DNA of 53,327 nt from Perkinsus olseni. Lineage: Eukaryota. This document shows, piece by piece, positions 4,846 through 50,239 of this stretch. A program made the position numbers and the translations under genes. The stretch is taken from assembly GCA_013115125.1 (NCBI GenBank), contig JABANN010000203.1, forward strand, positions 1 through 53,327, read 5' to 3'. The notes beneath the pieces are model-generated. The model searched no databases, had not been told where the DNA came from, and was given only the letters and a program-made list of their open reading frames with translations. Position 1 is the first letter of the stretch, and every line of letters starts with the position of its first letter.

Positions 4846-5087
4846 TCCAATTGACAGACGTTGGGATCGAACCGGGGTCGATAGTACGTAGGCGAAGGCT
4901 GATCGACGGGGACCACACCAGTTGAACAATCAAACTGCCCACCACCGATGGATCACCTACCCCCACCCCAGAGCGCACTCCCGGCGATCGATAAGAAAAT
5001 ATATGCAAGATAATGTACAACAGTTGATGAAGTATTCTGCTATTGCTGATCAGTGAAAGTGCGGCTCAATTACAATACGTCTCATCA

Positions 5088-7892
5088 TTATCCGGTCCAC
5101 TCCTCGTCATCGCTGTTATGCTTCTTTCTGCCATACGAAGGACGACCGCTGCTCTGCGGCCGTGTGTTCATCGTGCTCTCGGCTTCCGACTCAGAATAGC
5201 TGCTGCTCGCCTCGCTCTCAAATTCGCTTTCTGATGCCTGGTCCTCTGACAGAGACAGACTCAACAACATAATCCTGCCAGGAACCCCCTACCAATCCTT
5301 CGGCTCCTCCTAGCGGCTTCTCTGGGTGGTTGATGCCGGACAGGTAGTTGCTGATGCTGGTAGTGAGGTTCACTCCGCAAGGCCACCCCTGCCTGTTGCT
5401 GGAACATCGCCATTGCCGTGGAGGGCATCATGTGCTGTAGTTGGGCCACTAAGGCAGGCCTGCTAGGTGCTGCCGTTGGGGCGGGCGCAGGAGGCTGTGG
5501 TTGGAGGACCTACACGACACACTGTTAACTATACACTACTAGCGTCCTGCTTGAGCGCTCAGAGCCAACGTCCCTGGAATGTCGCGAAAATGGACCCGAG
5601 CCACTATGACCAGTTCAGCAGGTAATGGCCGTCGATAATGGAAACGGAACGTAGCAGCTATCTTCCATCATCTTCATTACTACCCTGGTGAGTATAGCAC
5701 CCGTGAGTTCTCTCGGTATCCAGCTCATAGACTCACGGCACTCCTCAGCAAATCTCATCCACGCCGCCGATGATGCCGCTACCCACTGGAGGACTATAAA
5801 CCACGATCATTATCACCTCATGACCAAAGGACACAACGACCCCACCTGCCGCCTGGCTGAACTTCCCTGTGGCATCATTACACGCAACTATGAGCGCTTG
5901 TGGTGGTCTCCTGAACGAGGACTGTTCCTTCAGTCTCGACCAATTCTCGGTAGCTCACCCTTCAGCTTGGGGTTGCTTGTCGTTCGGGCCACGGGCAAAG
6001 GCCGGATGAGCAATGACCGCTCCAGGGGATCCACTGGCATCGCCAAAAACCAAGCACGAGAGATTCCGTTCAAGATCCTGAGCAAGGCCACAACTGTCGC
6101 GTCGTCATCATTGAGACTTGACTCACCGTCAGAGGCGCCCATGTGGCAGCATAGCAGAAAGTCTGGCAAAAAGTCTTAGCGTTGGGTATGAGGATGAATC
6201 TCTCGTCGACGTTTGAGTCAGCTGGGCCCAGTAGGACGGACATCGGCCCAGCCTAAGGGGAGGAGCAACTTCAGCAGGCTATGAGGAAGGCGATAGGCCC
6301 ACCTTATCACGGCTGAGGTATCGCGGACAGAAGGGGTTTCCATCTCCTTGTGTCAAATACTCGGAGAACCTCTCGGCCAACTCTTTCTCCCACTGAAGAA
6401 GGATTCGGCTGCGTGACGAGACGAGACGAGACGGCGGATTTCAGCCAGGTTCGATTCCCGCACCCTGCACTTTTATCACCTTCATTCCCTGCGACTTTAA
6501 GTAAGCCAGTACATCATTGAGGGCTGCCTGAGTTATCGCGTCGAGCCCACCAGCAGCCACCGACGTTCCCGCGCTAGGCTGAGTGCTTCGCTCCGCCTCC
6601 TTTTCCTCCGCCGGTTTTTGCTTTTCTTCTGCATCTGCCATCTCCACATCACCTCCCTCCTCTTTCCCCTCTCCTCCTTCCCCCTCCTCCTCTTTTGTCT
6701 TCGTTCCCATCTCATCCTTGCTTTCCTCACCACCGCCCTCTTGCTCCGCAGTCCTCCCTTCGGCAGCCTTCTCAGACGTCACCTTCTCAGAGGCCAGACT
6801 GAAACCAACACACCTAGCCAGTCAGCGACAGGACGGTGGCAACGCCCCTCTATAACGGGTTGTGCCTCGGTCTTCCATCCAAAACGATGAGTTACCTGAG
6901 CAGGCAGGCCGCCACCTCTCCCCGTTTGCTGAAGAAGTCCGCTAGAAGCCATGTACCAACCAATCGCTGGCCGAGGTTCAAAAGCGGAATGCTCAGGCCA
7001 CGCTTCGTGAGGACTGTCAGAGCCATGAATCTGGAGGTAGAAACGACACTTCTGGGATTCGAACCCACGACCATTCGATTCTCTAAACTGAAGACTGCAG
7101 CAGGGCCCGACCTGTGCAATTGATCACAGTCCAGAGTCTCCGCAGTAGCCGTCGAAACGTCAGCACAGCCAGATATCTTCTGTGCGATAGCCGAGGCCCC
7201 GCTCGAAGGCGCTGGCCGCCGCGCTGTGCCCTGCTCCCGCTGCTGCTGCTGGAGAGTGGCAGCAGTCTGCTGATGTTGCTGACCAGTAACCATCCTGAGG
7301 GGCAAGAGGGATTCCTTCTGCCGTACCAAACTCGAGCATTCCGTATTCCGCGGAGGCCGGAGTTTGCCACTCACCGTTGTTGTTGCAACTGCCGTAACTG
7401 TGCCAGCCTCAGGGCTTCGGTGCTCCGATCAACCTGACGATGGAGAATACTTGAAACTGATGATGATGCAGATCGGGTATCACCTGTGCCGGTGCTTGCT
7501 CTACGTGAGTTACGGTGTAGGCCTCTTCCGGCACCTTCGCGCCGGCCTTGGCTGCTACCTGTCCAAGACCAATGGTGACACGGTGGACAATCCCTACCCT
7601 CACCTTCAAAACATCTGAACAGTATTCCTCGAACTTCTCTCTATCCCTGACGAAGAGGCCGCTGGAGAAGTCAGACCAGGCCGACAGGAACTGCGCGGCA
7701 AAGGCCGTATTGAGCGGAGGCAGGGGAGGCCGAGGCTGGGACGGTTGGGCCGATCCTGACGGGAGCTCGGCTGCTACCAATAGTATCCTCTCTTCGACGC
7801 CCTCACTCACCGGTCTGTGTAGAGCCATTCACCGGCGCTGAGGGAGCGGTCGGTGACGATGACGACCCCGCGGACGCAGGGGTGGGATTCAT
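5088..7892 (-). CDS. Hypothetical multi-exon protein with low-complexity Q-rich and E/K-rich segments
   Basis: ATG at 7892 (MNPTPASAG...). Chain of ORF fragments (7409-7828, 6892-7374, 6441-6782, 5930-6169, 5261-5449, 5088-5270) separated by GT..AG introns. No recognised domain; could be more than one gene. Confidence 0.5.
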
Positions 7893-8138: not shown

Positions 8139-8506
8139 TGTACCGTTCTAGTGTCCGATCCGGTCGCTCCCGTCTTGGCCTCTTTCTGGTTACCACTTTC
8201 AACACTAGGCACAGTCATGGCAATAGAGATAATACAATAATGAATCGGAGGGCGGAGGTCAGATACAGCGTAATCGATCCATAAGACAGCTAAGGGGACA
8301 ATAGTTGTGACACAGGTAGATCAGTCACGAGAAAAACAGCCACCGAGATTTGAACCTTAGCTTCTTGCTTAAGAACGTGCCGCTCTACCACTTGGGCTGA
8401 TCATCCACGAGATGCTCCGATATTTGCTGCCGTAGACCGTAAATAGAAGGCACAGATAATGGCTGCACGTATGTTGCACAACAGGGCGACCGATGAAACC
8501 GTTACA
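8139..8506 (-). repeat. 3' LTR (368 bp)
   Basis: Matches 14158-14526 except for 2 substitutions and a 1-nt A-run indel (by eye). Confidence 0.97.
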
Positions 8507-8520
8507 CGCCCCCCCAGGGA
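8507..8520 (-). other. Polypurine tract (G7) of the LTR element
   Basis: Minus strand reads TCCCTGGGGGGGCG immediately before the 3' LTR start TGTAAC. Confidence 0.75.
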
Positions 8521-8539
8521 GCCCAAAGCTTCTTTGGCT

Positions 8540-11500
8540 TCAACATACAACCCCAGTTTGTTGGAGCCAAGTCTTTACGTCTCGAGGTAACCGTCCACCC
8601 TTAGTAGGTTTAAAAACCTTCTTTCCAACTACTGCCATAATGCTAATGGAGTGTTGAGTTCTCTTTAAATCTGACCTCTTCGGTTTCCGAAAGACCCCAT
8701 TAGGGGCTTCATCTAAGCCTTGCACTCGTATATTTCCATCATCCTCAAATTTGAGGAACTGTGAAATATAAACACGTGTTATCGGCTCAGGGTTATTCGG
8801 CTCTTGTATTACTTCCGAATGAATCAACCAGTACTTATTAGTTGCAGAGGTTATTTCCTCTCCCCATGGCGCCTTTCCTTTAGCAGCATACGCCAACTGG
8901 TCAACTGCCGGCTTAATGGCATCTTCATACTGTTCTCGATCTGTTGCATCAATGAACGGTAAGAGGTGACTTAAAGGCACCGGGTCTTTCCGACCTTCTA
9001 AATAGTATATAAGGTGATTTGAATCACTTATACGTTGGACTCTATACGGTCCCCTCACTTGTCTTTTGTTATCAACCAATCGAGACAGTTTAACTTGGTC
9101 TCCTACTTTAAAACGATGGCGTGGGATCACATCAACTATGCTCTTCATCTCTGCTATCATTGCTTTTTCAGCCTGTGCAAATTGGGAGAAGGCATAGAGA
9201 TCGACCAATTGCTCATTAACAGCGGCCCACATCGTATCAGATGGCGTGTCTGTTCTCATCAAGGCTCCATCTATTCTACTCACGGAGCCAATAGTGAGCT
9301 CCATCGGCGTATATGGGACTGTCTCCGATATCATCGAGGTGTTATGAGCTAGAACAGCTACTTGCGCTGACAGCCACCAAGGTACTGTAGCCTGTCCTGT
9401 ATCAGTTCGTGCTGAACCTATCCGAATTGCTGTTTTCAGGTCTCGAATCACCCTTTCTACTAGCCCTTGTGACTGAACATGCCTAGGGAGCCCGTACTTG
9501 GCCTCAATATCCCAGTACCGCAAGAAGGGCTCGAGATATTCAGCATTCTTATGACCTCCAGCATTATCTAATTGGATATATGCAGGAGGACCATACAGGG
9601 AAATCCATGTTGTCAAAGCATATACCAAATACCTCGCGCTAGCGGAGGGCGTTGGTTAAGCAAGTAGCATGTGGGTTCCCTCACATATAATGACGCAAAG
9701 GTAAGCTGGTGCATCCTTCGCTAATATAGGATGAATATCATCTTGTTTTTCAGGTAGAATGGGACCGGCCCAGTCAATTTGAAGTGTTTCAAATCGTGAC
9801 TGCCATCGACGGCGAACCACAGGTTGGTGATTCTGCACGTCATGAAATTTATTCAATTGACATATTTGGCAGGTCCTTATATGGTGATTAGTGTCAAGTA
9901 CTTGGTTAGGCCACCAGAAGCCTGGTGTATCGTCTCGCATCCATTCCACTGCACGGCGAGTGCCACGATGAGAAGCAAGAGGACTATCATGCGCTCTATA
10001 TAGAGCCCACTTTTGTGACCTTAGTGTAGGTAGTACTACTCTATATTCACTTGTCTGCTTCTTCTCCTGGGGGTCATTCACCCATAACAGGCCATCTTCA
10101 ATTCTATAATACGGCCCATTGGGTGAACCTAGAGCAAGCGCTTGCGCCTTTATTGTTGGTTTATCTATTCCATCATTTCTCAGGGCTACCAACAGTTCAA
10201 GATACGTTACACCTTGGATCACCGAGTGGCCTCCTGTGAATCCTTCATCAGCAAGTGCCTCCCGAACGTGGTCAAGGACGTCATCTTTGGTAAGGCTTCC
10301 TATACCTGCTAATTGCTTGTATGGATCCTCCTCAGGATCTTGCTTTTGAGCAACATTGACATCAAGGGTGACCGGTGCCTCTTCTGGTGGCAATTCTATG
10401 AAGTCTACTGGCGGCGACGCAACGCCTAAGACACCTCTATGAGATGAACCTTTATCCTCTATTATCGTGCATTCGCCACTGTCTATCATAGCAAGAACAA
10501 TTGCTCCCTTTTTGGTCTTCTTGCCATTATACAGCCTCCGTCGAGGTTTCCGGGTCTCTAGCCCGCCAGAAAGTTTTTGCAAAGGGAGTGCAGATGAGCT
10601 TGCTCGACTAAGCTCATCAGCAAACGTGTTGTGTAAGCCTTTTATATGCTTGGTTCTTATATCGATGTCGTACTCTTCTTTAACTAGATCCTTGACATCA
10701 TGGATGGCGTTAATAAGACGCTCTAGGGCTACTCGATCGTAGGATCTACTTACTCCTAGCATTGATTTGCTCATCGACCAACTTACTGCGGTAGAATTAT
10801 CACAATATATAGTGACTTCTTTTATCTTTCCATGTAAGAAGATCTTCAACCAATCCGCAATTTTACAGATCGTTCTTTGGAGCGTGATAGCCTCACGACG
10901 GTTGATGTGATACTTTCTTGATTTCTCATCCCATTCACCGCAGTGTGCTTCTAGCATATTGCTATCACCGATCAGTTTTCTCCTCTGGCCTGGTCTTTTG
11001 AGTAGAGCTAGCATAGAGTAGTAGCCCCCATCCAGTCTCGGATGCGTCACAGTAGCCTATAATTTTATCGGCGTCATCTATCGGTGTGTGATGACAACTT
11101 CCATAGCCGTCTTTAAAGGCGAGCTCAAGCATTTGATTAAGATTCATTTGAGTGTTATGGTCAATAACCCATTCATGATTCCATGCCTCTGGGGTATTTC
11201 CCCCTTCACTACTGCCTCCCCAACGACGGACTCTATCCGCTATGAACCTCGTCATAGGATGTAAGCGCAGAGGATCATGCAGCATCCCGGCTGCTCTGAA
11301 CAGCCTGCGCCGAGTCACTTGGTTAGCAATTTTTATCTCTTCAGGTGATGGAGCCACGCATTCAAGTCGAAGGCCGCCGTCTTCACCCCTAGCTCGAGAC
11401 CAAATACAACCCAAATGTCTATAGCCTGAGTTGTCAGGTATATCAGTCTTCCCTTCTAATGGTCTTAACCAATCTTGTTTAGTTGAGGGGAATTCTGATC

Positions 11501-14237: not shown

Positions 14238-14526
14238 GGCAATAGAGATAATACAATAATGAATCGGAGGGCGGAGGTCAGATACAGCGTAATCGATCCA
14301 TAAGACAGCTAAGGGGACAATAGTTGTGACACAGGTAGATCAGTCACGAGAAAAAACAGCCACCGAGATTTGAACCTTGGCTTCTTGCTTAAGAACGTGC
14401 CGCTCTACCACTTGAGCTGATCATCCACGAGATGCTCCGATATTTGCTGCCGTAGACCGTAAATAGAAGGCACAGATAATGGCTGCACGTATGTTGCACA
14501 ACAGGGCGACCGATGAAACCGTTACA
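14158..14526 (-). repeat. 5' LTR (369 bp), contains the gag ATG (14237)
   Basis: Direct repeat of 8139-8506. Confidence 0.97.
14351..14426 (-). promoter_or_regulatory. Degenerate tRNA-like Pol III cassette (A box, B box, T6) inside the LTR; second copy at 8332-8406
   Basis: GGATGATCA-GCTC-AAGTGGTA-GAGC-G-GCACG-TTCTTAA-GCAAGAAGC-CAAGGTTCAAATCTCGG-TGGCTG-TTTTTT. Confidence 0.65.
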
Positions 14527-17709: not shown

Positions 17710-17743
17710 GTAGGGATTAGCAGGCCAGTGCTTATCGATAGAA

Positions 17744-20896: not shown

Positions 20897-22513
20897 ATGT
20901 CTAGTACAAGTACTAATAAACTTACCCGTCACATCCCTGAGTACATATGGTTCCTGCTGTATCGGATTGTGAATGCTCTATTAATAAGCACCTACAGCAG
21001 CGCTGATGAGTACTGGCAGTCCATAGAGGTGTCGCATTACCTTGTCTTTGGTAAGGGGTACCTCACGTGGGAATGGCGACCTGAAGTGGCCTTAAGGTCC
21101 TCCTTAATGCCCCTCTTCTATGTCCCTTACTACTGGTTGTTGAAGGTAACGGGATTGGACGGGCGTTGGCTGATAGCCTACGGGCCGAGAGTCTTCGTAC
21201 AGGCCCCCTTGGCAGCATTAGCCGACCTTTGCTTCTCTAAAACCGTATCGATTCTCCTGGAGCCAGCACTCGCAAGGACTGCCTTGGTACTGTGGCTCAG
21301 CAACTGGTTCATTCTCTCGATGCTAACCAGGACCTTCGCCAACAGTGTCGAGACCGCCCTTTACTGCATTATAATATTCGCTCTACTCCGATGGACCAGG
21401 CAGCCCAGAAAATACCACTTCCTCTTCCTCTCAACGGTCCTTTCGGCGGCTTCAGTGCTCATTCGCCCGACCAGCGCTACCTCTCTGGCGCCCTTGCTAG
21501 CGTTTAACTGCGTCTACGTGTTGTCCTACACCAGGCAATGGTGGCTGCTTCCGGTATGTGTTGGTATTGGCCTGGGGACCATGGCATGCATAGGATGCCT
21601 CGACAGCGTATTGCTGTATAATGGGAGCCTGCGAGGAGCCCTTACTTGGTTCAATTTTGCGGAATTCAATTTCATCAACGACTTTGGGAAGCTTTACGGC
21701 GATGACCACTCTTGGCTATGGTGAGAAGCCTCTTCGTCTGAGTCCCCCTTTCCCTCATACTGCTTCAGGTACTTCATAGCCGGCATTCCTCTATTACTGC
21801 TCAACCACATGGTACCACTACTTCGATCGTTGTGGGAGGGCACCTACCGGCCCCCTATGGACAAGCGTTTTACGCTCTCACTGGTCCTATCCTGGTTGGT
21901 GTCTTTGCCACTGCTGTCCTTGGCAAGTCACAAGGAGCTGCGCTTTATTATGCCTACTGTGCCAGTATTGTGTCTAGTGGTAGCTCCAGCTGTTGGTCCT
22001 ATTAGAGGTGGCATTCAAGGTCTGTTCAAGAAGGCATGGCCGCACTTAGTGGTGGCCTTGGTAGCTCTTCGATGGCATCAGTATGGTCCTGATGTTGTTA
22101 TGTCGGAGCTGTCGCGGCAGGTGGCCCCTGGCGATAGCGTGAGGTTCCTTACGCCCTGTCACGCGACGCCGTTCACAACGCACGTGCATGGGACTAGGAT
22201 ATCATCGATGGACATACTCGACTGTTCTCCGCCATTAAAGGAGTTGGCTGCAGGGATCGAACCCGGGTTGAATGAGCGGGACGCCTTCTTCGCGGACCCT
22301 CAGGCTCATGTGGAGAACACGACTCGTGGCTACGACTGGCTGGTTGTGTGGGGTGGTGCTGTTCGCCGAGAGGACAACGGTCTGGCGCGGTGGTTGGAGG
22401 AGGACGGCGACTATGACTTCGTAGAGAGCATCGGTGATGGTATGATCAATGATGGTCCTTATGGCTTCGAGTTTTGGCCGACTTTTGAACTATATCATCA
22501 TCATAATGACTAG
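20897..22513 (+). CDS. PIGB: GPI mannosyltransferase 3 (PIG-B/GPI10, GT22 family); exons 20897-21720 and 21769-22513
   Basis: ADEYWQSIEVSH, GYLTWEW, RTFANSVET, IRPTS, HKELRF and LTPCHATP motifs; GT-AG intron 21721-21768. Confidence 0.9.
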
Positions 22514-28360: not shown

Positions 28361-30436
28361 ATGTGCACTGACACTCCTGCTGCGACCGCCTCGGTCTATG
28401 ACCTCTTCGTCAACGACTCAACGTCTTGCGATGTCTGCGAGAAGCTCATAACCTACCTCAGAGCCGTTTCTGGCAAGGTGAGTTGCGGCCGCCCGGAATC
28501 GAACCCGGGTCTTTCAAAGCCTCTCTGTTTGCTCCTACCCATATGATACTGTTCACTACTCCTCACCTTTTCATGAGACGGCATCCCTCCCTGGTACTTG
28601 GCTGTCATTCTTTTCTGAATCAGGGCGCTCGTCCCAGTGGCACGATCATCCGGGCCACGACCAAGCCGGGTAACTCGGCCCTTTCCGCTGCTTTCGACCA
28701 GCGACTACCCGTCTATGCCAGCCAGAAGAGGGAGGAATCTTTCGAGGGCGCCCTTAAGGTGGGGGGGACAGCTGAATTGTGTGTTGGTGTTCTGAATGCC
28801 GTGTGGTTTGTCAGGCACTGAAGGCCATCGCCGAGGACTCCGGTTTTGGTTCCCTTCTCCTTCCCGAGGGCGGTGAGGCTCTTAAGTGGGTCGAGTGGTG
28901 TCTTAATGAGAGCGAGGGAGCGTTCAAGCTGAGCAAGCAAGGCGTGGAGAAGCTCAACAAGACGCTCGAGGACAGAGTGGGTCTCTCGTCGTTTCCGCAC
29001 GGCTGGTTGACGGAGTTCGCGTCACGTAGGTATTCTTGCTTGGCGGCTCGAACATAACCCTAGCAGACTTCGTAGTGGCCCACGCTGCTGAGCGATGGGC
29101 CTCCAAGGCTTCTCAGAAGGAGCTTGCTCAGTACTGCAACATCACTAGGTAACGAAAGCTCGATGCTGGTCGGTGAATGTCGAATCTTCCCTTTAGGTGG
29201 TATCACCATATCAGCACTCTCCCCGGCAGCCCTTATCCTGAGAGCGTTATCGATCTCCATGCGGTGTCGCGGGCTTACACGAACCTTCATAAGGCTGATA
29301 CTGCGGCGCCTGGTGGCAAGGGCAAGGGCGGCAAGGGCTCCCCTAAGAAGGGTGAGCCATCGGGTGGTGACGAGAGGACCCTTGCGGATGTGATCTGGTC
29401 TTAGGCGAGGCAGGTGATGCTGATGCTGCGGCCAAGAAGAAGGCTGAGAGGAAGGCTAAGAACAAGGAGAAGCAGGCTAAGGCACAGAAGGAGACTCGAC
29501 CAGTCGAGGATGTCAGTCGGCTCAATATGATTGTTGGTAAGGTTTGATAGTTGACGGTGGAGAACTTCTGAAGGCATATGTGGTGGCTTGCCTCAGGCAA
29601 GATCAATAAGGTTTGGGAGCATCCCGATGCGGAGAAGCTGTGGTGTGAGGAGATTGACTGTGGCGAGGCTTCTGGTGAGTACCGATGGGAGAATATGGAG
29701 GGATATTTTAGCTCTAATAATTTCGCGGAGGAGCGGCTTTGCCTGGCATTCGCTAGGGTTTGCTACATCTTGGCGTGTCAATAAGTGCCGTGCGCCATCA
29801 GTGCCGGGGCTTCTACGACCTTTGATAGTCGCGGGCGTGTCTCGCTGTCACTTCTGCTCCTGCTTGTTGTCGTCAGGTCCCCGTCAGATCGCATCAGGCC
29901 TCCGCGATTTCTACAAGGAGGCCTCTGATCTCGAGGGCCGCAAGGTTGTCATCCTTGCTAACCTCAAGCCCCGTCCCCTTCGTGGATTCGTCTCCCACGG
30001 TATGGTCATGTGCGCCTCTACCGGCGACCACAGCCAAGTTGAGGTCTTGGACGTGCCCAAGGACGCCAAGCCTGGTACGCTCGCATCAGTATGATATCTC
30101 TTGGCAATCGTGTCTTAGGTGACCGTATCACGATCCCTGGCTTCGACGGTGAGCCTGATGAGGTCCTCCATCCCAAGCATAACCCCTTCGATGCTGTCAA
30201 GGGTAGGATGATCTTGGAATCTTGAGCTCTCTTGCGGTATCTCCACGCTTATGTTTAGGTGATTTGAAGACTGTGAAGAAGGAGGATGGTGTCATTATGG
30301 CGACCTACAAGGTAAGATGAGCTACTGTTCGCGTTCGGACCAGCCAAGGGGCATCTTATTTCAGGGCAAGGCGTTCACTCTCCCTAGCGGTGAGATCGTT
30401 ACCGCCCCTGACCTTGCCGACTGCGAGATCTCTTAA
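28361..30436 (+). CDS. Arc1p/AIMP1-like aminoacyl-tRNA synthetase cofactor with a C-terminal EMAPII tRNA-binding domain
   Basis: HPDAEKLWCEEIDCGE...PRQIASGL...ANLKPRPLRGFVSHGMVMCA; K-rich linker; multi-exon. Confidence 0.85.
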
Positions 30437-31827: not shown

Positions 31828-31949
31828 AAGTCACTGGTCTTACTGTAATTGACGTCTCTTAGCGGTCTCGGGAGTGGTGTTGGTTTGAAGGAGGGGGGTA
31901 GCATACTCGTTACTTTCGCTGAGTTGACTTCTCTTTTGCTTCTTACGGT

Positions 31950-34587
31950 ATGTCAGCGACTGCGGGGAAGTTCGCCTCGTCAGGGCTAACGGCTGCAGGA
32001 GGATTCGGGACGTTACAGAAGCAATGGTTGCTTTATATGGGTCTGCCGTGGTGAGTTACTATGACAGGGCTTTCCGGGTATTTCATGGCTGTGATGTCTA
32101 AGATATTCTCATGGTGGTGCTCCTCCATTGATGTTGATCGACTTGTCGGCCGGGTTTTCCACTTATGCGTTGTTATTGTGGAGGGCTGTCATCTGTTCAG
32201 GGCAGTAGGAGGCATGCAAGCGATGGTCTATGTCTTCGTAGCGACACAGCCCGTGTTAATGATATCGGTGTGCACTCTAGAGACGGCGAGGCTGGGATGT
32301 CGACCGCATCCGATTGACGAGTGCCCAACAGACCCTTCCCTCTATGAGTTTGCTGGCGATATCTACAAGTCTGTCGTCAGCGAATTTGGGCTCGCCTGTG
32401 AGAATAGGTAGGAGGATCATCGTCACCTTGTCGTATTGGTCATTGTTGTTGCAGCTCATGGGCTGTGGCTTTGCAGTCGGAGCTCTTCTTCGGCTTCCTC
32501 GTGGGCGTGTGGGCCATCGGATGGATGGGTGACCGCTTCGGTCGTAAACCAGCATTGTGGCTAAGCGTCGTCACCACGCAGCTCTTCGGCCTCCTGTCGT
32601 TTGTTGCTCCAACATATCTTGCGTAAGTCCCTTCTCCGGCCTCCTTCGCATGACTCGTCGTTGTCCAGATATGCAATCTCGAGGCTAGGAGTTGGGCTGG
32701 GTATCGGTGGTCTGGGCCTTTCCAGCTACGTCCTAGCGACAGAGGTCACAGCTCCGGAGTGGCGTAGTCTAGTGTGCGTAGTGACCAGCTCCATATTTGC
32801 TCTTGGTAGTACGGGATTGTGACGGGGACCACGGCCAACCTCACTCATTCACCTGTCTAGCCCCTTTCTACCACAGCTTAGTAGTAGGGCGGGTTCTCAT
32901 CTATATCGCTGACTTTCATTGGTTGTTATAGCTACGGTGCTCACCCTTAAGAATGATGACCGAGCAGCCAGTTGAGCGAGCCAAGCTTCTGAGGTGTCGC
33001 TTGACATCAGGTATTGTAGCGGTATCCAGTCTAGCGGCTATACCCAACATCCACTGGCGGATGCTGTCGTTCGGCGTAGGTCATCTCCGGTTCATTCGAT
33101 GCAGGCTGATATACAGGCTTTCAGGTTTGGATGTTGAGCTGGGCATGTGTGCTCCCGGCCCTCCTTTTAACTCTATTTTTGGAATCTCCTGTGTGGCTCG
33201 AAGCGCGGGGTCGTCACGCTGAAGCCGAGGCGGGTTTGCGCAAGATCGCCATCGTCAACAACCGACAGGCTGAATTTGATTCTTTTTTGAAGAAGTGGGA
33301 TGATCAGTAAGAGGGGAGTTGGACGTTTTTCGAGCGGCTTTGGTAGTTTTCTTATCAGACACATACCGGCCCCGGACGGTGATTTTTCGATAGAAGATGG
33401 TGACAAGAAAGACTCTTTGCCGGCATCAACGAAGGAGGATGATAGTTTGTGGGGTCTATTGGTGACGAAGAGATTGAATATAATACAAGAATTCGTGGCT
33501 GTGATGGTGGCCGCATGGTAAGCGGGTGGTCTAGAGAGCCGTAGGCCGTGAGTTCGAACCCTTCAGGTTTGCCTCGAGCCTCGGCTATTACGGATTGTCG
33601 ATGAATGTCGGAAACCTCGGTGGATCTATTTATCTGAACTCTATACTTAACGCTTTGGTAAGATTACCGATAAGCTGCGTAGCATCAGCCAGTCAGGCCA
33701 TGCGAGTGACCCTCCTCCCGTGAGGCATGTCCTTCTAGGTTGAGATACCTTCCTACGGTATGATGTACTTCATGGTTGACAATGCCATCACCGGCAGGAA
33801 ACTTACTCTGTAGGCAGGCCCTCTCCCACCTCACTCGGATGTGTCTGATATCAGGACCATATATCTTCTAGCAGGGGGCATTGCTTGTGTCATTGGCCCT
33901 CTATTCACCTGGCTCCATTGGCTTTCCCTCACCATAGCCCTCCTCGGCAAGTTCTTCGTCTCTGCTGCCTTCGGAGTGTGCTATATGTAGGTGTCTCCGC
34001 TGCCTTCACAATCAGTGCCGACGCTCTGCTCTCAGTTACGGTTCAGAGCTATTCCCCACAAGCATCCGCAGCTCTGCGTTGGGCATCCAGTCTCTAGCGG
34101 CTCGTATTGCTGGCATCATCTCGCCACTCGTGCCACCCCTTGGCGAGGTCTGGTCGCCTCTACCGAATCTAGTAAGTTGGCTGCAGTCCCGGCTCAGTGC
34201 CAACGGGTTACTCTGTGCTTGCTCAGATATTTGGAATCCCGTGTATCGTCGCAGCTGTCTTTATTTTGCGTCTCTTACCGGAAACACTCGGGCGGAGCCT
34301 TCCGATGACAGTGGAAGATGTCCGGGCTCTCCGGCAATACTCGGTGGGTAGTGCCGAGCCTCCCCGCCCAGGACACGGGCAGACCGGAAAATACGAGATG
34401 CCTCTTGATGAGTGAGTGGGGCGACTTCTACCCATCTTTTCTCCCATTCGAGGGGTCGTGGACTCGTACTCGTGTCAGATTTGACACCGACTCCTCCAAT
34501 GACTCTGAAGCGGAAGAAGACGAGCGACGCGCTAGAACTCTGCGTGACGTCTTCGGCACTGAGTTCGGCCCAAAGGCCAGTGAATAA
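31950..34587 (+). CDS. MFS transporter (SLC22/organic-cation-like), multi-exon
   Basis: VSEFGLAC, GDRFGRK, ESPVWL, YYGLS, ELFPTSIR and LPETLG motifs. Confidence 0.85.
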
Positions 34588-35366
34588 ACAGGTTTCTTGA
34601 TAAGCATAACCATCTCAATTCACTATATCGCCAGCAACAGCAACAACAGCGGATTTTCATACTTCCTTGGCGTAGTGTTTATGTAGTGGACTGTGGGGGT
34701 GCCGGGGTTTGAACCCTACCTTTCGAATCTCGGAGATTCGTCGTACTCGGCGGTTGTTATCGACGATGCGTTACTGGTGACTTTACAACCGAACAGTGCC
34801 GTCACACTCTGTGACTGACAGAGCCGGCTTTATGGCGAAATAACCGTAGTAGCTTCGATGAGAGCCTGTCGGCAGCTTCCTATCAACTCTACTTACTATC
34901 AAAGCTAACTACCGATCTTCTATCGAGAGACTTGGCGGTAAAATCCTCCCCTGAATACTCTCAAGAAAGAAACTCTGATGACTTGATGTCATGTCATCAA
35001 CTCTCGCTGATAACTCAAAGTCGTAGGCTACGACTCGTAGGCTCTGGCGGACCCGGTTTGCTTAGAGTCCCAAGAATCCCAGTGCTGCCTCGAGGCTACA
35101 AGTGATTTACAGGAATTTCTGCTAGTGGTGACAGAATCTTGTTGCTGCGGAGGCATGGAAATCTGGGCGACGCGCTCGCCAGAGAATCTTCTAAATATCT
35201 TCCAGTTTTCTCGCTTGCATCACAAAGGGTTCAAGATGGATAAACTATAAGCTTGTCTTCGGTCAAGCTGGGGCTCACCGTAAGCATTTAATTCTGTGTA
35301 AGTGTACAGCTCCGCGGTAGGGGATACGGGGTTTCCTATTAGCTCTGCATTGATTGTGATTGCGTG

Positions 35367-36212: not shown

Positions 36213-37075
36213 TTCTATAGTCCATGTATATTCCTCGTCTTGTCTCAACCAGTAATGGCTGGCTTACTATAGATATATATCTTTCCCGTACGAAATTGGT
36301 GTTCTGTTAAAGAGTAGCGCGGGTACTCAAGATGGAGAGGATGGAAGCTCGGCAATATTACTCTCGCTGTGCCGCTGCCCTTTTGGACTTGGTTTGTGCT
36401 GGTAACGCAGTTTCGATGAACAAGTGCAACTAGACAGGGGATGCGGACAAAAGTGAGGAAGCGTTTTGAGGAGAAAGGATACCGGTGATGGAGAGGGAGT
36501 GGTCATGTCGCCGGATATGCCGTCGAAGCTGCTAGATCTATCAGAGCAGATGAGGTACCGAGTCGTCATCAGCACAAAATGGTCCACAATTACAGTAGTT
36601 ACGTTTACGCGTGCTTCACAACAACCCTGAATGAGTTACGCAAGGGGGTAGTGAGTGAGAGGACACGCGGTTTCGAACCGCTAGAGCGACCAAACGCGGG
36701 GAGCGATCACATGGCGCTTTCTCATTAAGCCACGTCCTGGCGAACCGGATCGAACCCGTTCGATCCATGCTGCTTTCGGATACTGAATCTTGCGCTGGGG
36801 CGTGCGCGAGTGATGGTGGCGGAGCGAAGTGATGCAGGAATGCTACTTTGTAGGAATCGATGCTTTAGCTACGTATGAGCCATGTAGTACAGTACGCAAC
36901 GCAGGGCTAGTCGCTGTTATTGCGCCTTTCGCACAATGGCTTTTGTCGTCATGGACTAAGCGCGTTGTCTCGTTTGTCGTTTGTACTGTTAGAGGTAAAT
37001 ACTTGTGGGGAGGCCGGGCTGCTTTCGAGGATGGCATGGGAGTGACTCAGTTCCCTTTAAGAGTTTCCTTCCACC

Positions 37076-39449: not shown

Positions 39450-42248
39450 ATGAACATGCGCCCGGGATCGCACCTGCTGCTCCTGCAGCTGCTTTTACTG
39501 GCGTTCGCTGTCAATGTGCATGCCTGGTCAATACCATGGTTCGGAGGAAAGAAGGTAATTAGATCCTCGCTGGGGTCGCCTGGGCACCTTGGTCTGGGGT
39601 AACGACACCTTCTTTCTCAGAAAGTGCTGGGAGAGGTGGCAGAGTTGGATGAGACGTCCTTGGACGAGCTGCTCGCTACCGAGTCTATCAGCGCTGTCCT
39701 CTTCTATGCCCCTTGGAGTCCCTACTCGCAGCATGTCCTACTCGTCGAGAGGCCTCTGCGTTGCTCAGCTGCCCATCCTCGATCAGGCCCTACCAATGTG
39801 GCAGGTTGTGGCAGAGAAGTTGGCCCTGAGCAATCCTCCCATCCCAGTAGGGCAAATCGATGCCGCCAAGTACCCTGAGGTAAGATTATGGACTTCCCTC
39901 GTGGTACGCTGAAAAATGGGTTCAAGCTCGAGTGGGCTTCCTCACATGGGTGTTGGTGGGGTCTTAAAGCGTTGCCACTTGAACAGGTTCGCGTGAAGCA
40001 CGAGATCATCGCCAACCCGACGATCAAGCTGTTCATTGACGAGGAGGCATTCGAGTTCCCTCTGCAAGAGGAGAGGACGTGGGCTATTCTCTATAGTGGT
40101 GAAGACTGAGCTCTTCGTCTTAGGTGGGCCAACGCGGTGAACTGGATCAACGAGCGGACCAACAGGGAGCAAGTGGTGACCAATACCGAAGAGATGGATG
40201 CCTTCTTGGATGAGAACCCCCTGGCTGTCATCGGCCTCTTCATGTCCGAGCGAGATTCACAGATGTACCACATTAGCCTGGCCTCCCGCTTTCTCTTCAC
40301 CTACCAATCGAGGAGCTCAGCCTTCCTTCTTCTGGGCGCTAATACGTTCGGGTTCGGGTTCGGGCTCGATCGTAGCTGATAACCCGTGTCCGGGTAGCTT
40401 GAGACGACTACGGGTGCAGGTTCAAGAAGACTTCGCGCCACTTTGATGACGTTTCATTCGCCGTCACTTACGGCAGTAACTCTCGAGAGATGGCCCAATA
40501 CTTAGTCAAGCTCGGGTACTACTACCCCTCCGCAAAAGTCTATGGACCGCGAATTCTCTCCTGTGTAGGAAGATCGCGGACACTCCCACTCGGTTCCCAA
40601 CTTTAGTGATGCTTTACCAACACGACGAGAAGGCCGCTGTGTATGACGGTGATATGGGCGACTATCATAAAGTAGGAGGACAAAGGAGGCCTGATGAGAA
40701 GCTTATCTGTCTCCGTCAGGTTGATCAGTTCATCCTTTCCCGTCGAGTACCAATGGTAACGGAGTTCTCCGCTGAGACTGCCGACCAGGTAAAATGCAGA
40801 CTGCTTGGATCGAACCCGCGACCATCTGCAGTAGCGTGCGTGTAGATCTTCTCGAGTGGTATGCCTACGATATTCCTCTTCCGCGACCCCGAGTCTGAGG
40901 TGGGACAGCAGGCTGAGGCTGCCCTAAGAGAGGCTAGCACAACGCTCAGAGGTAATCACCGGGTGGCTGAGCAAATACATCGTCTGGGAAGTCGCCGCTA
41001 AAACCATAGCGACTCTTGAGTGATGTCAGAGATGCATCTCACCATAACGCATAGGAACAGAAATCCAGAAATAGTCGTTAGTCGAAGAAACATACTCTCA
41101 AGCGACTTCACTTAGCACCCCGGACAACTCTGTTGACCAGTACACAGTAGATGCAACAGTTCGAACTGAGCAGGCAAGTTTGACCTCCCCCTCAGGCTCG
41201 GTCGTCTTCGCCCTCGCTAGTGATACGAACGAGCCCATCCAGCAGCAGCTGTTCCATGAGTTGGCACTTGAGAACGTAAGTCCAGTCGATCCTCGCAGCC
41301 TTCAACATCCAACGCTATCAGTTGGAGCCATCGGATTTCCCCACTACGCGTTTGGTGTATCGCTCGACGCGTTCTCATCAACATCGCCAATACATGGACG
41401 TGAAGGCTCGGAAGTACCGTATTGATGCCGGCTACGGCGCTCGAGCGTGCCCACCAGGTGAGGGTCCCATCATGCTGCTGCCAGACATCACAAGTTTTCT
41501 TCTCGCAGTTACTTCTCCTGACCACTACAGATCATTCGTGTATCAATATTCCAAAGGAATGATCAAAGCCTACCAGCGCTCAGAGCCCCTTCCTGTATAC
41601 TATGGCAACGAGCCCGTTGTACAGGTAGGCCGTGTCTCGCTCCTGCCGAATGTGACCCTGAGCCCTCAGGCGGTCGGTAGCAACTTCCAAGAACTTGTCC
41701 TGAATTCACCCCAAGACGTCCTTGTCGACTTTTACGCGCCCTGGTGCGGTCATTGCAGAAAGTTCGAGCCCATCTATCGGTCACTCGGGGAAAGTCTGAA
41801 GCCCCTGAGGAATACGTAGCATCTCTGCACCGCCTTGGACGCGGCGGCTCCAACTGCCTCTCAGGTTGCGAATCGTGAAGATCGATGCGACCCAGAATGA
41901 AGTCCCTGAACAGATCACTGGTTTCCCTACGATTCTCCTTTACCCCGCTGGTAAGTTCCCTCGCCCTTCTCTTACCCCTGTATGCCTACTGCCCCTTCCC
42001 AGGCAAGAAGGATACGCCGGTAGAGTTCCGTCAGCAGCGAACGGTCCCCGTCTTGACGAAGTAGGTCTGGGGCTCCTTTCACTTGGCTCATTAGTGCTGT
42101 CCTCAGGTTCCTCAAGGCTCACTGCACTAACCCTCTCACTCTTTCTCAAGAGGACCCCAACGCTCGGTGGCAGGTGAGGCAAAGTCTGATCATTTCTTTG
42201 TAAATGCCCATCTCATCCTTTTAGGGACTCAGCCCCGATGAGCTGTAA
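39450..42248 (+). CDS. Protein disulfide isomerase-like (a-b-b'-a'), signal peptide, C-terminal PDEL
   Basis: FYAPWSPYS (first site non-catalytic), DFYAPWCGHC, KIDATQNE and GFPTI. Confidence 0.9.
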
Positions 42249-44644: not shown

Positions 44645-44986
44645 GACCGGGGTGATCAAATTCAACCGTGGTTTCCCGTCGTGCACGACCGTGTGCTTGT
44701 GTATGGTATAGCTGATAATGAACTCAACAACGGCCAAGGTGGGAGAAGGCAGTAGTAAGTGGGCAACCTCGAAGGGAGCGCAACCGGCTGCCGTTTAGTA
44801 ATCGAGGTAAAAAGTGATCTCAATAACTTCAGCGGCAACAACAAGACCTCATACAGCAGAGGAGGACGAGGACGACCGCTGCATTCAACTAGCGGAAGAC
44901 GACGATCAATACGCCACTAAGATGCGGGTTGTTGTGGTCCACATGAAGACTACTCTAGTCTAAGGTCCCCAGGCTAGAAACGGCCA

Positions 44987-46408: not shown

Positions 46409-46908
46409 TTGCGGGGGAACTGTTAAAAATGGAGTCGAAGGCCTATAAAGATCCGAGTATCTTAACTTGATGCGCGCAAGATAGAGAATAGGTCAAGTTC
46501 ATCGTTGAAATCCGCGTCGCATTCATAGCTTTGCACATGCAGCGTCCTCTCCTCATCCGCTCACTGTGTAGCTCATGCTCGGCGAACATATTCTATATGA
46601 ACATCTCCTACAGGTCGTACGGCAATTTCCCATGCGACCAGCGCGAGAATAATCCACCGAGGGGATGCGGTCTCCCGTCCGTGACGGCAGGGAGGGCTGT
46701 GACGTTCACTGGGCGCGCGCTTTTTCTTTTCAGTGCTCACGAAGGAAAGCCTTCACTACGAGCTTTGGTTCTCTGTAAATACTCGTGAGACGAGGGGTCG
46801 TTAAGGTGAATAGTCGCCGGTAGCACCACTTCCATTCTTCCTCGTGCTGCATGGACTGGAAGAAAAGTGCACGCAACCGGGAAGATCGTGTGCGATGAGC
46901 AAGTTGTA

Positions 46909-46985
46909 GTATGATTTGTTCTAGTGGTAGAGCGCCGGACCATATTACCGAAGGTCGTGGGTTCGATCCACGAGAGGTCTATTTT
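46909..46985 (+). pseudogene. Degenerate tRNA-like element (A box, B box, T4)
   Basis: GTTC-TAGTGGTA-GAGC D-arm, AGGTCGTGGGTTCGATCCAC T-arm and TTTT; acceptor stem does not pair and anticodon arm is irregular. Confidence 0.65.
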
Positions 46986-47114
46986 CGAAAAGTTCGAGAC
47001 ATACACCCAGTCAAGAACGGCCTTTATCAGCTTCGACTAAGTCATGTTGGAGATCTCTCCGAGTTAGCATACCGTGCCCCCGTTCAGTTCCCCCTCCTCG
47101 TTGAATCCCTGCCA

Positions 47115-50100
47115 ATGCCAGAAGACCTGTCACCCGCCCCCACCCCTGCAGAGGAAACCAACCTGGATATCCTCACCAAAGTGAATGCAATGTTAGAAAG
47201 TACTACCGTTTTGTAGAAAGGCCGCGGTCAGCGTCGCCGCCGTCCCTGAAAATCGTCGAAGCAATAAGAGCATCTCTAGTGTGCCATGTTGTGGCTCCTT
47301 CAGACTACGTGGCGTCCCTCGATGACCGGCATCATAAGGTTGTCCAATTCAAGAGCCCCGAGGAGATCTCCAGGATATTTTCTGAGAAAGCCTGTGATCT
47401 TTCCCTCAAGGATGGTGAGCCGGCTGGACGAAGGACGTATGCTCGTAATCATCGCGGTACAGGTCAGCCTGCTGGCGAGGAACGAATCCTGAAGGCCTGT
47501 GAGGCTACTCTGGCACTCTCTGTGAGGACCGGTCACCCTCATTTTTTCAACCAGCTCATTGGCCGTGCTGATGTTACTGGTAGTACTTGAGAATTCATTT
47601 CGTAAGGCCGTGGGTTCGATCCCTGGTCTGGATGACCTACGTTTCGCATCCAAACAGTCCGCTGGATTCTGATCTAATTCTATGTTACCTCTGGAGGCTA
47701 TGCCCTCTCGTCCAGTCCCACTCTCCAATCCCTCTAAGCCTCCTCGTCCAACTCCCGGAATTATCCAACTGAAGCTGCCGGGATTCCCCGTCGTGGAACC
47801 CGAGCAGCCATGTGGCCGTCGGTATGATCAATTCTATTAGCCGTTACGCATTGCATTTGGCTTCATAATGTACCTTGAGAGGCCCCCTGAGCAGGTATTG
47901 CCGGTGAAACGCTCGTCGCCGCTACCAACGGTTCGGCATATACGTACGAGGTGGCACCGGTGTTCTTGCTCGTCGAGCAGGAGGTCATGAATAAGACCTT
48001 CGACCTGGTGGGGTTCAGCCGAGATACCGCCGAAGGTGAGTAATCCTGAATGCTCTGTGCGTCGGGAGTCACTGCCACCGGACTCCTGTCGTCCGCTGCG
48101 CCCTATGGGGATCGAGGCTTGTGTTGCCCAGGCCTCACCGTGCCAGGAGGTTCAATCTCCAACCTCTATGCGCTCCAGACTGCGAGATACTATAAGTTCC
48201 CCAAGGTTAAGACCGAGGGCATCTTTGCTATTGGAGGCCAACCTGTTGCGTAGGACTGTTGCCGTCTCATTGGAGTCGGGTGTTGTCGGTACCTTCCCAG
48301 GTACTGCTCGGCAGGAGCTCACTATTCCTACACGAAGGCGGCTCTAGTGGTCGGGCTAGGGTCCAATAATATGGTTGAGGTAGTACCAAGCAGTCGGGAG
48401 AGCTGTCGTGGCGTTCGGAGCGGCCTCCTGTACTTGTCTGAAACGGTTGCTGTCCCGCGCCTGGAGGCTGGATCCTCGAGGGGGCACTGAGTAGCTCGTA
48501 GTAGCCGCTTCCATAGCGCGTTCGGGTGACCTTCTTTCGTTGTGTTATCTGCTTGGGATAGATACCGATGGACTCTCGAGGCCGCATGCGGGCTGATCTT
48601 CTCGAGAAGAGAGTGGCAGAGGACCTGGCGGTCGGCAAGAAGCCCTTCTTCGTTGGCGCCACTGCTGGCACAACTGTCATGGGTAAGGGGCAATAGCTCG
48701 CCAGAGTGGCTTTTCTTTCATAGATTCCCTGTTCTCGCTCCGCCTCGGGAACAGCAGTGCTCTGTGGGGTTTCTATGCTTCTTTTCAGGGGCTTTTGACG
48801 ACATCGAAGCCCTTCGGGAGGTTTGCGATAAATTCGGCTTGTGGTTGCATGTCGATGGAGCTTGGGGTAGTACAAGATTGCCTGACCCGCACCGCTCCGC
48901 TAAGGGGAAATGTTTTTTCCGTCGTAGGTGGTGCCGTATTGTTGTCACCGAAGTACAAGAAGGCTCTGCTGTCGGGTGTTGACAAGGCCGACTCATTCTG
49001 CTGGAACCCCCATAAAATGGTAGCCTCGCGTCCTTACCATCGCCCGTACCGTCTGGTTAGGTGGGAGCTCCGCTCCAGTGCAGTATATTCACGCACAACA
49101 AGGGACATGGGCTGGTAGGTGGTAAGGCACAGTAGTGTTCCTGGATCTTGCTGTCCTGCTGCTAGCTGCAAGCCTGCAATGGTACTTGTGCGACGTACCT
49201 CTTCCAGAAGGATAAGAATTACTCTTCTTATGATAAGGGTGATTGGACCATACAGTGTAATACCAGCACCCGGGCGTGGGGTGGTTGTCGTCGATCCATG
49301 TCCAGCACCTCAGGCGGACGGAAGCCCGATGCTTTCAAGACTTGGTTGGCTTGGAAGAGGCTCGGTGACGATGGCATCAGGCGCAGGGTTGAATACGGTA
49401 GTGAGGATAGGTCGTGACGGTGGTTCTGGTGATTGTGATGTCCAGGGATCGAGCTGGCGAGATATGCCGCTAGTGAAATTAAGAAGTCGTCTGCGGACTC
49501 TAGTCGGTTCGCTGGTAAATTCGTGCTGTATCGAGATCCTGAGTACGCTAACGTGTGCTTCTGGTGAGCTGATGGGAAGAGGATACAGGTTTCATGGGGG
49601 CATCGCAGGATGAATACTGAATGGAAAATCCCAAATGTTCATACCAAATTTTGGTGAACGAGCAGAATAATAAATGAGACAGCAGCATACGAACGTTAGC
49701 AATATACCGACGACTCAGTGAATCGACCTATCACCACCCCTATGTGAAGAAGTGAGACCATGATGGTGGAGTGATGGCGTTTGTGGTGGTGCAGGCTTTC
49801 CGTATTATTCTCAGACCGTTGGGTTACGACAGATTCCTTTGTGGTTGAAGATTTGCTGGGGGAGCTCGCTGCTACTCTCGTTCATGTTTAGGTATCTTCC
49901 GCCCTCTCTTTTCCACTTGGAGCCGTTAGAAGGCCTCAATGACGAGGACGCTGCTAAACTGACTAAGGCGAGAAATTCGAGCATGATAAGAGGATACGGT
50001 GGAAGCTTTCAGGTTACACCTTACATCAAGGACAAGATGCAACGCGTGGGCCTTGCTTTGATCACTTTCACAGGACCCTACAACTTTTTCCGGTACTATT

Positions 50101-50239
50101 GAAATGCCGTCGGTGGGGTTCGAACCCGGGTCTTCTCAGATGGACTTTCACCTCCCCACGAAATGTCCGCTACGATGACGTCGACATAGTGCTGAACGAC
50201 ATCGATCGTATTGGGCGGGATTTCGTGTACTCTGATTAG
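47115..50239 (+). CDS. Group II PLP-dependent decarboxylase (glutamate/cysteine-sulfinate decarboxylase family), multi-exon
   Basis: [45 protein letters not shown] and [11 protein letters not shown] (PLP lysine). Confidence 0.92.

Follow-up and report, generated by a model that had tools for sequence, protein, structure and literature searches.

The window, by which we mean the whole stretch of Perkinsus olseni DNA that was analysed (53,327 nt), carries genes for an Alg9/PIG-B-like mannosyltransferase, a thioredoxin-motif (PDI-like) protein, a glutamate-decarboxylase-like protein and a transketolase, together with a young LTR retrotransposon, and scattered through it on both strands is a short tRNA T-arm or B-box motif, GGTTCGANNCC. 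The original prediction listed exact copies at 4863(-), 6448(+), 7055(-), 22253(-), 28495(-), 36669(-), 47613(+) and 50116(-)/50117(+), all of which were recovered, giving nine strand matches at eight loci when both strands of the window are searched. The excess over chance claimed for them is borne out by 100 dinucleotide shuffles, in which the mean was 0.50, the maximum in any one shuffle was three and none reached nine. With one mismatch allowed, 32 matches were found on both strands of the window (11.7 expected, shuffle maximum 22), and these include the near matches previously noted at 33550/1, 34705, 36746, 40806 and 46960. The words CGGGTTCG (9 against 0.78 expected) and GGGTTCGA (10 against 1.12 expected) are the most over-represented non-microsatellite words in the window. 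The repetition of the T-arm motif is real. The set analysed below consists of 13 sites, namely the eight exact cores and five one-mismatch cores, which are irregularly spaced, with 12 gaps of 77 to 15198 nt and no period seen.

Locations of the sites

Introns account for 14% of the window and hold seven of the 13 sites (P=9e-4). The host introns are 47-315 nt long and hold the core in sense or antisense orientation, as had been proposed; five of them (sites 6448, 7055, 28495, 47613 and 50117) were mapped with Perkinsus proteins and two (40806 and 33551) were placed from sequence and frame only.

6393..6479, minus strand: intron of 87 nt; exact core 6448-6458 (+), antisense to the gene
7031..7111, minus strand: intron of 81 nt in the same gene as the preceding one; exact core 7055-7065 (-), sense
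28478..28623, plus strand: intron of 146 nt in a plus-strand gene; exact core 28495-28505 (-), antisense, 17 nt from the 5' splice site
33518..33566, plus strand: inferred intron of 49 nt, from GT..AG ends and an open spliced frame only; one-mismatch core 33551-33561 (+), sense
40789..40845, plus strand: predicted intron of 57 nt in the thioredoxin-motif (PDI-like) gene; one-mismatch core 40806-40816 (-), antisense
47580..47894, plus strand: intron of 315 nt in the glutamate-decarboxylase-like gene; exact core 47613-47623 (+), sense, 33 nt from the 5' splice site
50093..50139, plus strand: intron of 47 nt in the same glutamate-decarboxylase-like gene; palindromic exact core 50116-50127 (repeat D7)

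At 6393..6479 the proteins of P. marinus and P. chesapeaki skip 29 codons, and the skipped stretch contains an in-frame stop; at 28478..28623 the exon ends match residues 1-39 and 40-84 of protein P0018. The intron at 40789..40845 is based on the gene finder and an open spliced frame, with the strand taken from an RNA spliced-leader tail at 39427/39432, and the flanks of the palindromic core in 50093..50139 fit the antisense orientation best (variable loop, T arm, GCA and TTT). Intron sizes, spliced-leader sites and the stretch without RNA cover were taken from the listed joints of RNA contigs on 31001-51000. The gene finder recovers 13 of the 15 RNA-confirmed introns, and the total of 89 predicted or mapped introns is therefore approximate; its minus-strand predictions overlapping the RNA-confirmed plus-strand gene at 37-39 kb and the transketolase gene were left out. 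Few exons were placed by Pfam searches of 140 reading frames around the sites. Upstream of 33518..33566 there is a weak Sugar_tr match, below the Pfam cut-off. The description of the host introns as tiny does not fit all of them, their median length being 81 nt against 51 nt in the 15 listed RNA-confirmed motif-free introns (one-sided Mann-Whitney, P=0.03).

Five sites look intergenic and one is coding. Sites 36669, 36746 and 46960 are placed between genes by RNA cover and spliced-leader sites, and 4863 and 34705 are probably intergenic.

4863..4873, minus strand: exact core with variable-loop-like bases and CA at +20/21, probably between two minus-strand genes
34705..34715, minus strand: one-mismatch core GGTTCAAACCC with CA at +20/21, ~630 nt upstream of a spliced-leader acceptor site
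36657..36756, minus strand: intergenic pair without RNA cover, made up of a tRNA-Ser-like unit at 36657-36739 (exact core 36669-36679) and, directly 5' of it, a second small palindromic core at 36746-36756
46897..46985, plus strand: best-preserved unit, between divergent genes; A-box-like word 46923-46933, one-mismatch core 46960-46970, TTTT 46982-46985
22253..22263, core on the minus strand, gene on the plus strand: exact core in a coding exon of the Alg9/PIG-B-like mannosyltransferase, encoding part of ..AAGIEPGLNE..

The core at 22253 is explained by the conserved peptide, and is either a chance match or an exonised copy. Near matches had also been reported in both LTRs of the retrotransposon; they are present, but with two mismatches and within a complete tRNA-like unit.

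8332..8405, minus strand: tRNA-like unit in the 3' LTR; A-box-like word 8382-8392, then a B-box-like word (two mismatches), then a T-run
14351..14425, minus strand: tRNA-like unit in the 5' LTR; AGTGGTAGAGC at 14402-14412, GGTTCAAATCT at 14366-14376, T6 at 14351-14356

The same complete unit (A-box-like word, B-box-like word and T6) is found in both, the LTRs holding it being 100% and 99% identical.

tRNA-gene-like flanks and likeness between copies

The variable-loop and T-stem context described in the original prediction is present, with the variable-loop bases W.G.C at -8/-6/-4 found in 8 of the 13 aligned sites against a background of 3.6%. Downstream, a C72-A73-like CA at +20/21 occurs in six sites (background 6.7%), and TTT at +22..24, the position of a tRNA-gene terminator, also occurs in six (2.6%); upstream, a D-loop-like GGTA at -35..-33 is found in four (1.25%). 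These four features were picked after the alignment had been viewed, yet they are predicted by tRNA numbering, which they obey on one strand only. The sites are more than bare B boxes. No CCA was found after the CA in the aligned sites, so that the source resembles a gene or primary transcript and not a mature tRNA. An origin from LTR primer-binding sites was also considered and was ruled out because the copies lack the CCA complement and have a gene-like T-run.

The statement that there is no A box has to be qualified, since the A-box-like word AGTGGTAGAGC is found in the 46960 unit and in both LTR units; it is found only there, and the A-box consensus is not enriched in the window (one found, 3.4 expected). 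That no copy keeps a cloverleaf was upheld. ARAGORN at its default settings finds no tRNA gene in the window, and with Rfam neither the full window nor separate searches of stretches of 851, 161 and 121 nt brought up a tRNA at E<=10. With its threshold set to 85%, ARAGORN reports 4 of the 13 sites, compared with 53 of 480 implanted T-arm controls, which is a marginal difference (P=0.047); its relaxed mode with introns allowed was too noisy and those results were not used.

Likeness between the copies extends beyond the core. When the flanks from -70 to +45 were compared in all 78 pairs, 23 pairs lay above the 95% null and seven above the 99% null, one of the seven being a trivial overlap. The 46960 unit matches 40806 (73% over 52 columns), 7055 (77% over 39 columns), 47613 (85% over 26 columns) and the 5' part of the LTR unit (76% over 38 columns), with E values of 0.002 to 0.03 for the pairwise matches around it. 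Comparison of the 89 introns with one another gave similarity at E<0.05 in only six pairs, all of them among the seven motif-bearing introns and 74-90% similar over 18-38 nt. The family comparison is based on 13-15 copies from this window.

The part that is best kept is a 20-nt block, AWGGYCGYGGGTTCGANNCC, which has six matches at <=3 mismatches against 0.15 expected, and which includes the B box together with variable-loop bases outside it. Five copies of this block show four mismatches in all across 18 specified positions each, a figure to be read with the fact that picking sites by their core inflates apparent core conservation; the 3' strand of the T-stem and the acceptor part are only ~70% alike between copies. 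A conservation edge as sharp as this is not predicted by uniform neutral decay of one family, but would be by mixed tRNA sources or by selection. A search for decayed copies with the variable-loop word AWGGYCG gave 48 matches against ~29 expected, 12 of them in introns, and this excess is no more than suggestive.

Origin of the units

The best explanation, and one that we consider fairly probable, is that the motifs are parts of decayed, tRNA-gene-derived, SINE-like units of RNA polymerase III (Pol III) type, left as old mobile-element debris. The window would then hold about a dozen decayed copies of short tRNA-gene-derived units, of which the motif would be the best-kept part, and each unit would be laid out as a Pol III gene, its A-box region weak, its B box strong and its terminator a T-run. 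Together they would form a repeat resembling SINEs or tRNA pseudogenes and falling into at least two sub-groups. Its copies would have dispersed through the genome, at least one of them carried within a retrotransposon LTR, and would have persisted, in either orientation, only at places that tolerate an insertion well, namely introns and the DNA between genes. Their stems would have decayed, so that no copy remains a tRNA. The B box would be conspicuous partly through the search pattern, which selects for it, and partly as the element common to all source tRNAs, and it may still bind TFIIIC. For such units we infer mobility, transcription by Pol III and considerable age. Libraries enriched for tRNA by LOTTE-seq have been reported for both P. 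olseni and P. marinus (PMC9550989).

An old tRNA-derived SINE had already been suggested, and part of that suggestion stands. It is favoured by the tRNA-numbered flanks with their terminator-like T-run, by the likeness beyond the B box and by the complete unit in both LTRs, but the classical SINE marks that were looked for are missing. No convincing direct repeats that could be target-site duplications were found around six units, and no A-rich tail, LINE-like tail or tRNA-unrelated body was seen, the unit appearing to end at the T-run directly after position 73. The Perkinsus units share with tRNA-derived SINEs and tRNA retropseudogenes their short dispersed copies with a tRNA-related part, a B box that is best kept in a decayed cloverleaf, their occurrence in introns and intergenic DNA in both orientations, and sub-groups apparently from different sources. 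From tRNA-derived SINEs they differ both in these missing marks and in that many copies are only ~40 nt long, corresponding to the 3' half.

An alternative, to our minds unlikely and close to the TFIIIC-type network of the original prediction, is that selection has kept the B boxes in place as TFIIIC sites without a tRNA gene, perhaps starting from old tRNA-like units; such sites would influence chromatin or the traffic of RNA polymerase II (Pol II) in a trans-splicing genome. Orphan B boxes bound by TFIIIC are called ETC sites in budding yeast and human and COC sites in fission yeast. By definition an ETC site is an extended B-box locus to which TFIIIC binds while TFIIIB and Pol III are absent (PMC12409998). 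The Perkinsus sites resemble ETC and COC sites in combining a B-box consensus that is perfect or nearly so with an apparent lack of any functional tRNA gene, and some of them lie between genes. The sharp conservation edge around the block with the B box would fit such selection, as would the decay of the 3' strand of the T-stem, which an RNA would need, and the rank of the motif as the top over-represented word in the window; yet the conserved block runs on into variable-loop bases beyond the B box, the CA and T-run have also been kept although both are dispensable for TFIIIC binding, and choosing sites by their core would itself inflate core conservation. Five copies are in or near intergenic DNA, one of them 126 nt upstream of a spliced-leader acceptor site, and the cores are better in the old relics than in the young LTR copy, whose B box is the poorer; against this, one copy is coding and accounted for by its peptide, and the sites show no period in spacing and occur in both orientations. 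Their density of about one per 4 kb is moreover far above that of the eight ETC sites of yeast, and in contrast to ETC and COC sites most copies are inside introns, and tRNA-gene flanks (variable loop, CA and T-run) can still be seen.

We give rather little credence to a further alternative, in which a tRNA-gene-like Pol III unit would form or remodel introns in Perkinsus in an introner-like manner, its B boxes perhaps still recruiting TFIIIC in Pol II genes, and part of the dense tiny Perkinsus introns would descend from insertions. The 5' splice site would be supplied by the D-loop GGTA in sense copies and by the complement of the T-run trailer in antisense copies. In every one of the seven host introns the 5' splice site and the start of the core are 17-46 nt apart, the introns of 146 nt (17 nt) and 315 nt (33 nt) included, so that the unit may supply splice sites. 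Two of the three sense copies (in 33518..33566 and 47580..47894) have the 5' splice site on the D-loop-position GGTA; the GGTA in 28495 and 46960 is not a splice site. All four antisense copies have the intron GT 6-12 nt past the complement of the GCA end; the first bases of intron 6393..6479 are the T-run and GCA end of the unit in complementary form, and the GTAAAA of 40789..40845 is the complement of the T-run plus AC. The unit nearly fills the introns of 47, 49, 57 and 81 nt (in the last, 7031..7111, a tRNA-like unit called by ARAGORN at the 85% threshold spans 7045-7115), and it is the only sequence common to different introns. This spacing pattern was, however, spotted post hoc, and geometry may suffice to produce it, since an insertion into an intron of ~50 nt must fall near the 5' splice site if it is to spare the branch point. 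The motif is in none of the 15 RNA-confirmed introns listed and in only 7 of the 89 predicted or mapped; splice-site hexamers vary between copies, no duplications flank the introns, and proteins from other species of Perkinsus match the flanking exon ends. The units can be compared with the introner elements of algae, fungi and the dinoflagellate relative Amoebophrya (PMC7789003), in which, as here, several short introns of unrelated genes consist largely of one repeat. The Perkinsus units differ in that no terminal inverted or direct repeats were found, in the limited similarity among the introns (74-90% over 18-38 nt), in host introns with canonical GT..AG splice sites, and in being found outside genes and inside an LTR as well.

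That the motif is an effect of chance or composition, or a palindromic transcription-factor site unrelated to tRNA, is very improbable: several cores are near-palindromic and match both strands, one exact site is explained by coding sequence and ~0.5 exact matches are expected anyway, but no shuffle reaches nine matches, and a palindromic factor site was rejected given that the palindromic NN is found at only one of the eight exact loci and that the flanks follow tRNA numbering on one strand.

Relevance to Perkinsus genomes

No earlier report of such Perkinsus repeats was found in the literature, supplementary files and most subscription journals being outside the search, and no Perkinsus-like locus came up when metagenomes were scanned twice, once with a P. 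marinus protein and once with the transketolase of the window (best match 57% identical); the 24 loci retrieved were left out of the analysis. Should the SINE-like reading be correct, the units would represent repeat biology of an ordinary kind, so far undescribed in this lineage. At about one relic per 4 kb, B boxes would number in the thousands in this compact, trans-splicing genome, and such a density would offer a ready-made system for testing if chromatin or Pol II transcription is shaped by TFIIIC sites beyond yeast and animals. The presence of units in 7 of 89 introns, always near the 5' splice site, also means that comparison of Perkinsus genomes could show whether a Pol III-type repeat has added or remodelled introns, and were the intron-forming reading correct, some of the tiny introns that are so dense in this lineage would come from tRNA-like retroposons. 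For annotation, tRNA finders run at relaxed thresholds are likely to report these units as false tRNAs.

Enrichment and tRNA-gene-like context of the motif

The tRNA T-arm / Pol III B-box motif GGTTCGANNCC (the core) has nine matches over both strands of the whole window by exact search, which represent eight loci and include every exact position in the original prediction, against a mean of 0.50 and a maximum of 3 in 100 dinucleotide-preserving shuffles. With up to one mismatch there are 32 matches in the window (11.7 expected), among them the predicted near matches at 33550/1, 34705, 36746, 40806 and 46960. This striking enrichment is real, being backed by an unbiased word count (one LTR and two repeats masked, third-order background) in which the top over-represented words after codon-repeat words include GGGTTCG (15 versus 3.8 expected), CGGGTTCG (9 versus 0.78) and GGGTTCGA (10 versus 1.12). 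Our working set comprises 13 sites, eight exact and five with one mismatch, each named by its core start.

The sites comprise more than a B box alone. In an alignment of all 13 on the core, whose first base was numbered as tRNA position 52, six flanking columns score above the 99th percentile of random columns (about 0.8 expected). Four context features are those predicted by tRNA numbering.

Table. Context features in the 13-site alignment (sites; background; P). P values are indicative only, as the features were picked after the column test on the same sites.
W.G.C at -8/-6/-4 (positions 44, 46, 48): 8/13; 3.6%; 3e-9
CA at +20/21 (C72, A73): 6/13; 6.7%; 1e-4
TTT starting +22 to +24 (tRNA-gene terminator position): 6/13; 2.6%; 4e-7
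GGTA at -35 to -33 (G18 G19 U20 A21): 4/13; 1.25%; 2e-5

CCA is absent after the CA in the aligned sites, so the source would seem to be a tRNA gene or its primary transcript rather than a mature tRNA; the T-run together with the CA likewise suggests a template of this kind. Near-complete units are of two kinds, one at 46897-46985 and one common to both LTRs of the retrotransposon at 8139-14526, and both carry AGTGGTAGAGC, which is A-box-like, a B-box-like word and a T-run. The earlier statement that there is no A box was therefore too strong for these units, although the window shows no enrichment of the A-box consensus itself (1 versus 3.4 expected).

The sites are not tRNAs. ARAGORN at default settings found none, and Rfam gave no tRNA match at E<=10 for the whole window or for 851-, 161- and 121-nt sub-regions around the best units. 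At an 85% threshold ARAGORN calls degenerate cloverleaves at 4/13 sites, but also at 53 of 480 randomly implanted T-arms (hence P=0.047). By inspection, decay has affected the 3' strand of the T-stem, the 5' strand retaining its sequence, and these strands give no sign of selection on an RNA fold.

Genes and introns around the sites

RNA contigs mapped on 31001-51000 define at least 15 GT..AG introns of 44-77 nt. Some carry non-templated 5' tails ending ..ATCTTGGCTCA, which we take to be the Perkinsus spliced leader, at 35341/35349, 37049, 39427/39432, 47086 and 50675 (+) and at 46421 (-), and these tails mark acceptor sites and thereby gene starts. For Perkinsus, PMC3101222 reports both frequent introns and spliced leaders of 21 and 22 nt. 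In the highly covered gene at 37049-39237 (+), a 475-codon reading frame contains 12 RNA-confirmed introns (44-77 nt), and a poly(A) tail is seen at 39237; by eye the gene looks like a seryl-tRNA synthetase.

Table. Surroundings of the sites. The first five introns were placed by tblastn of proteins from other Perkinsus species, the next two from sequence alone.
6448: intron 6393-6479, 87 nt; minus-strand gene, unit antisense; 29 codons, including an in-frame stop, have no counterpart in the P. marinus and P. chesapeaki proteins
7055: intron 7031-7111, 81 nt; same gene as 6448, unit sense; both species' proteins skip 27 codons
47613: intron 47580-47894, 315 nt; glutamate-decarboxylase-like gene
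50117: intron 50093-50139, 47 nt; same gene as 47613
28495: intron 28478-28623, 146 nt; exon ends match protein P0018 exactly
40806: predicted intron 40789-40845, 57 nt; gene finder and open spliced frame, gene strand from a spliced-leader tail in RNA
33551: putative intron 33518-33566, 49 nt; splice sites and open spliced frame only
36669 and 36746: stretch without RNA cover
46960: between divergent spliced-leader sites (RNA contigs)
4863: between the mapped ends of two genes
34705: perhaps intergenic
22253: coding exon; encodes part of ..ELAAGIEPGLNERDAFF..

As introns make up about 14% of the window, seven intronic sites of 13 is an excess (P=9e-4), and the copies lie in both orientations as predicted, four antisense and three sense. 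The original description of mostly tiny introns needs amending in one respect, since the hosts are longer (median 81 nt, up to 315 nt) than the 15 RNA-confirmed motif-free introns (median 51 nt, P=0.03).

The peptide ..ELAAGIEPGLNERDAFF.. is identical in P. chesapeaki and sits in a linker that is variable among distant homologues. The coding copy, at 22229-22270 (+) with peptide ..AAGIEPG.., may be either chance or an exonised unit; in the 6448 intron the same sequence, taken in the frame of the upstream exon, would give ..GAGIEPG and then a stop. P0018, a homologue of the product of the gene at 28361-30433 (+) that hosts the 146-nt intron, maps over about nine exons, and by eye the C-terminal part of this product looks tRNA-binding-domain-like. 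The window's mannosyltransferase gene is matched at 100% identity by P0006, an annotated protein of Perkinsus olseni.

Likeness between copies and probable origin of the units

Against a null of real cores set on random flanks, 23 of 78 flank pairs exceed the 95% level and seven the 99% level (one a trivial overlap). Alignments of the 46960 unit span 52 columns with 40806 (73%, E=0.002), 39 columns with 7055 (77%) and 26 columns with 47613 (85%); its 5' part matches the LTR unit over 38 columns (76%, E=0.011), and this last alignment extends upstream of the expected tRNA start. Among 89 predicted or mapped introns only six pairs are similar at E<0.05, all within the seven that bear the motif. 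The copies are thus alike beyond the core. Bases 5' of the core divide the sites into two sub-groups, AWGGYCGYG and GACCCG, and a 20-nt pattern of the former has six matches at up to three mismatches (0.15 expected). Over its 18 specified positions in five copies, this block shows four mismatches in all, and similarity in the 3' part next to it is only about 70%. The edge of conservation is sharp; mixed source tRNAs sharing just the 20-nt block would explain it, and so would selection, core and flank conservation being not cleanly separable in one window where sites were chosen by core.

The sites are probably worn SINE-like or tRNA-pseudogene-like copies of tRNA-gene-derived, Pol III-gene-like short units. 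These would have more than one source, with copies retained in DNA where insertions are tolerated, and the copy inside the LTR argues that the unit is able to travel. The closest known kinds are tRNA-derived SINEs and tRNA retropseudogenes, orphan B-box (ETC/COC) sites and introner elements. The original prediction is partly supported, on its SINE-relic side, by the tRNA-gene context, the likeness of copies and the LTR copy, yet the units differ from tRNA-derived SINEs in having neither convincing target-site duplications, which were looked for around six of them, nor an A-rich or LINE-like tail, and these, with the sharp edge, are the weak points of this reading. Ordinary repeat decay is the likeliest reading of the sites. 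In the literature covered, largely outside subscription journals, we found no earlier report of such units in Perkinsus.

That the sites act in situ as TFIIIC sites of the ETC type seems unlikely. They carry the sequence that this would require; PMC12409998 defines such sites by occupancy without Pol III together with boundary activity. A role of the unit in forming introns is somewhat more doubtful. In all seven host introns, the 146-nt and 315-nt ones included, the distance from the 5' splice site to the start of the core is 17-46 nt (antisense copies 17, 17, 21 and 24 nt; sense copies 33, 33 and 46 nt); the D-loop-like GGTA coincides with the 5' splice site in two sense copies, and in all four antisense copies the intron GT is found 6-12 nt past the complement of the GCA end. 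However, geometry may explain the spacing, as an insertion in an intron of about 50 nt would disrupt the branch point unless it lay close to the 5' splice site, and the motif occurs in none of the 15 RNA-confirmed introns listed. The association with the 5' splice site is worth following up genome-wide. Chance, or a palindromic site of an unrelated kind, is hardly credible.

Other repeats

The LTR retrotransposon at 8139-14526 (-) has LTRs of about 370 nt with TG..CA ends, 100% and 99% identical, and a sequence complementary to the 3' end of a tRNA, CCA included, runs from 14157 downwards beside the 5' LTR and resembles a primer-binding site. The P. chesapeaki protein P0005 maps on both sides of the element, which suggests an insertion peculiar to this genome. 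At 16966-17044 / 17224-17302 the arms of a perfect 79-nt inverted repeat lie 179 nt apart, and a tandem repeat at 18610-19119 (period about 48 nt) is rich in GCT/GTT codon-like repeats and lies in a long minus-strand reading frame.
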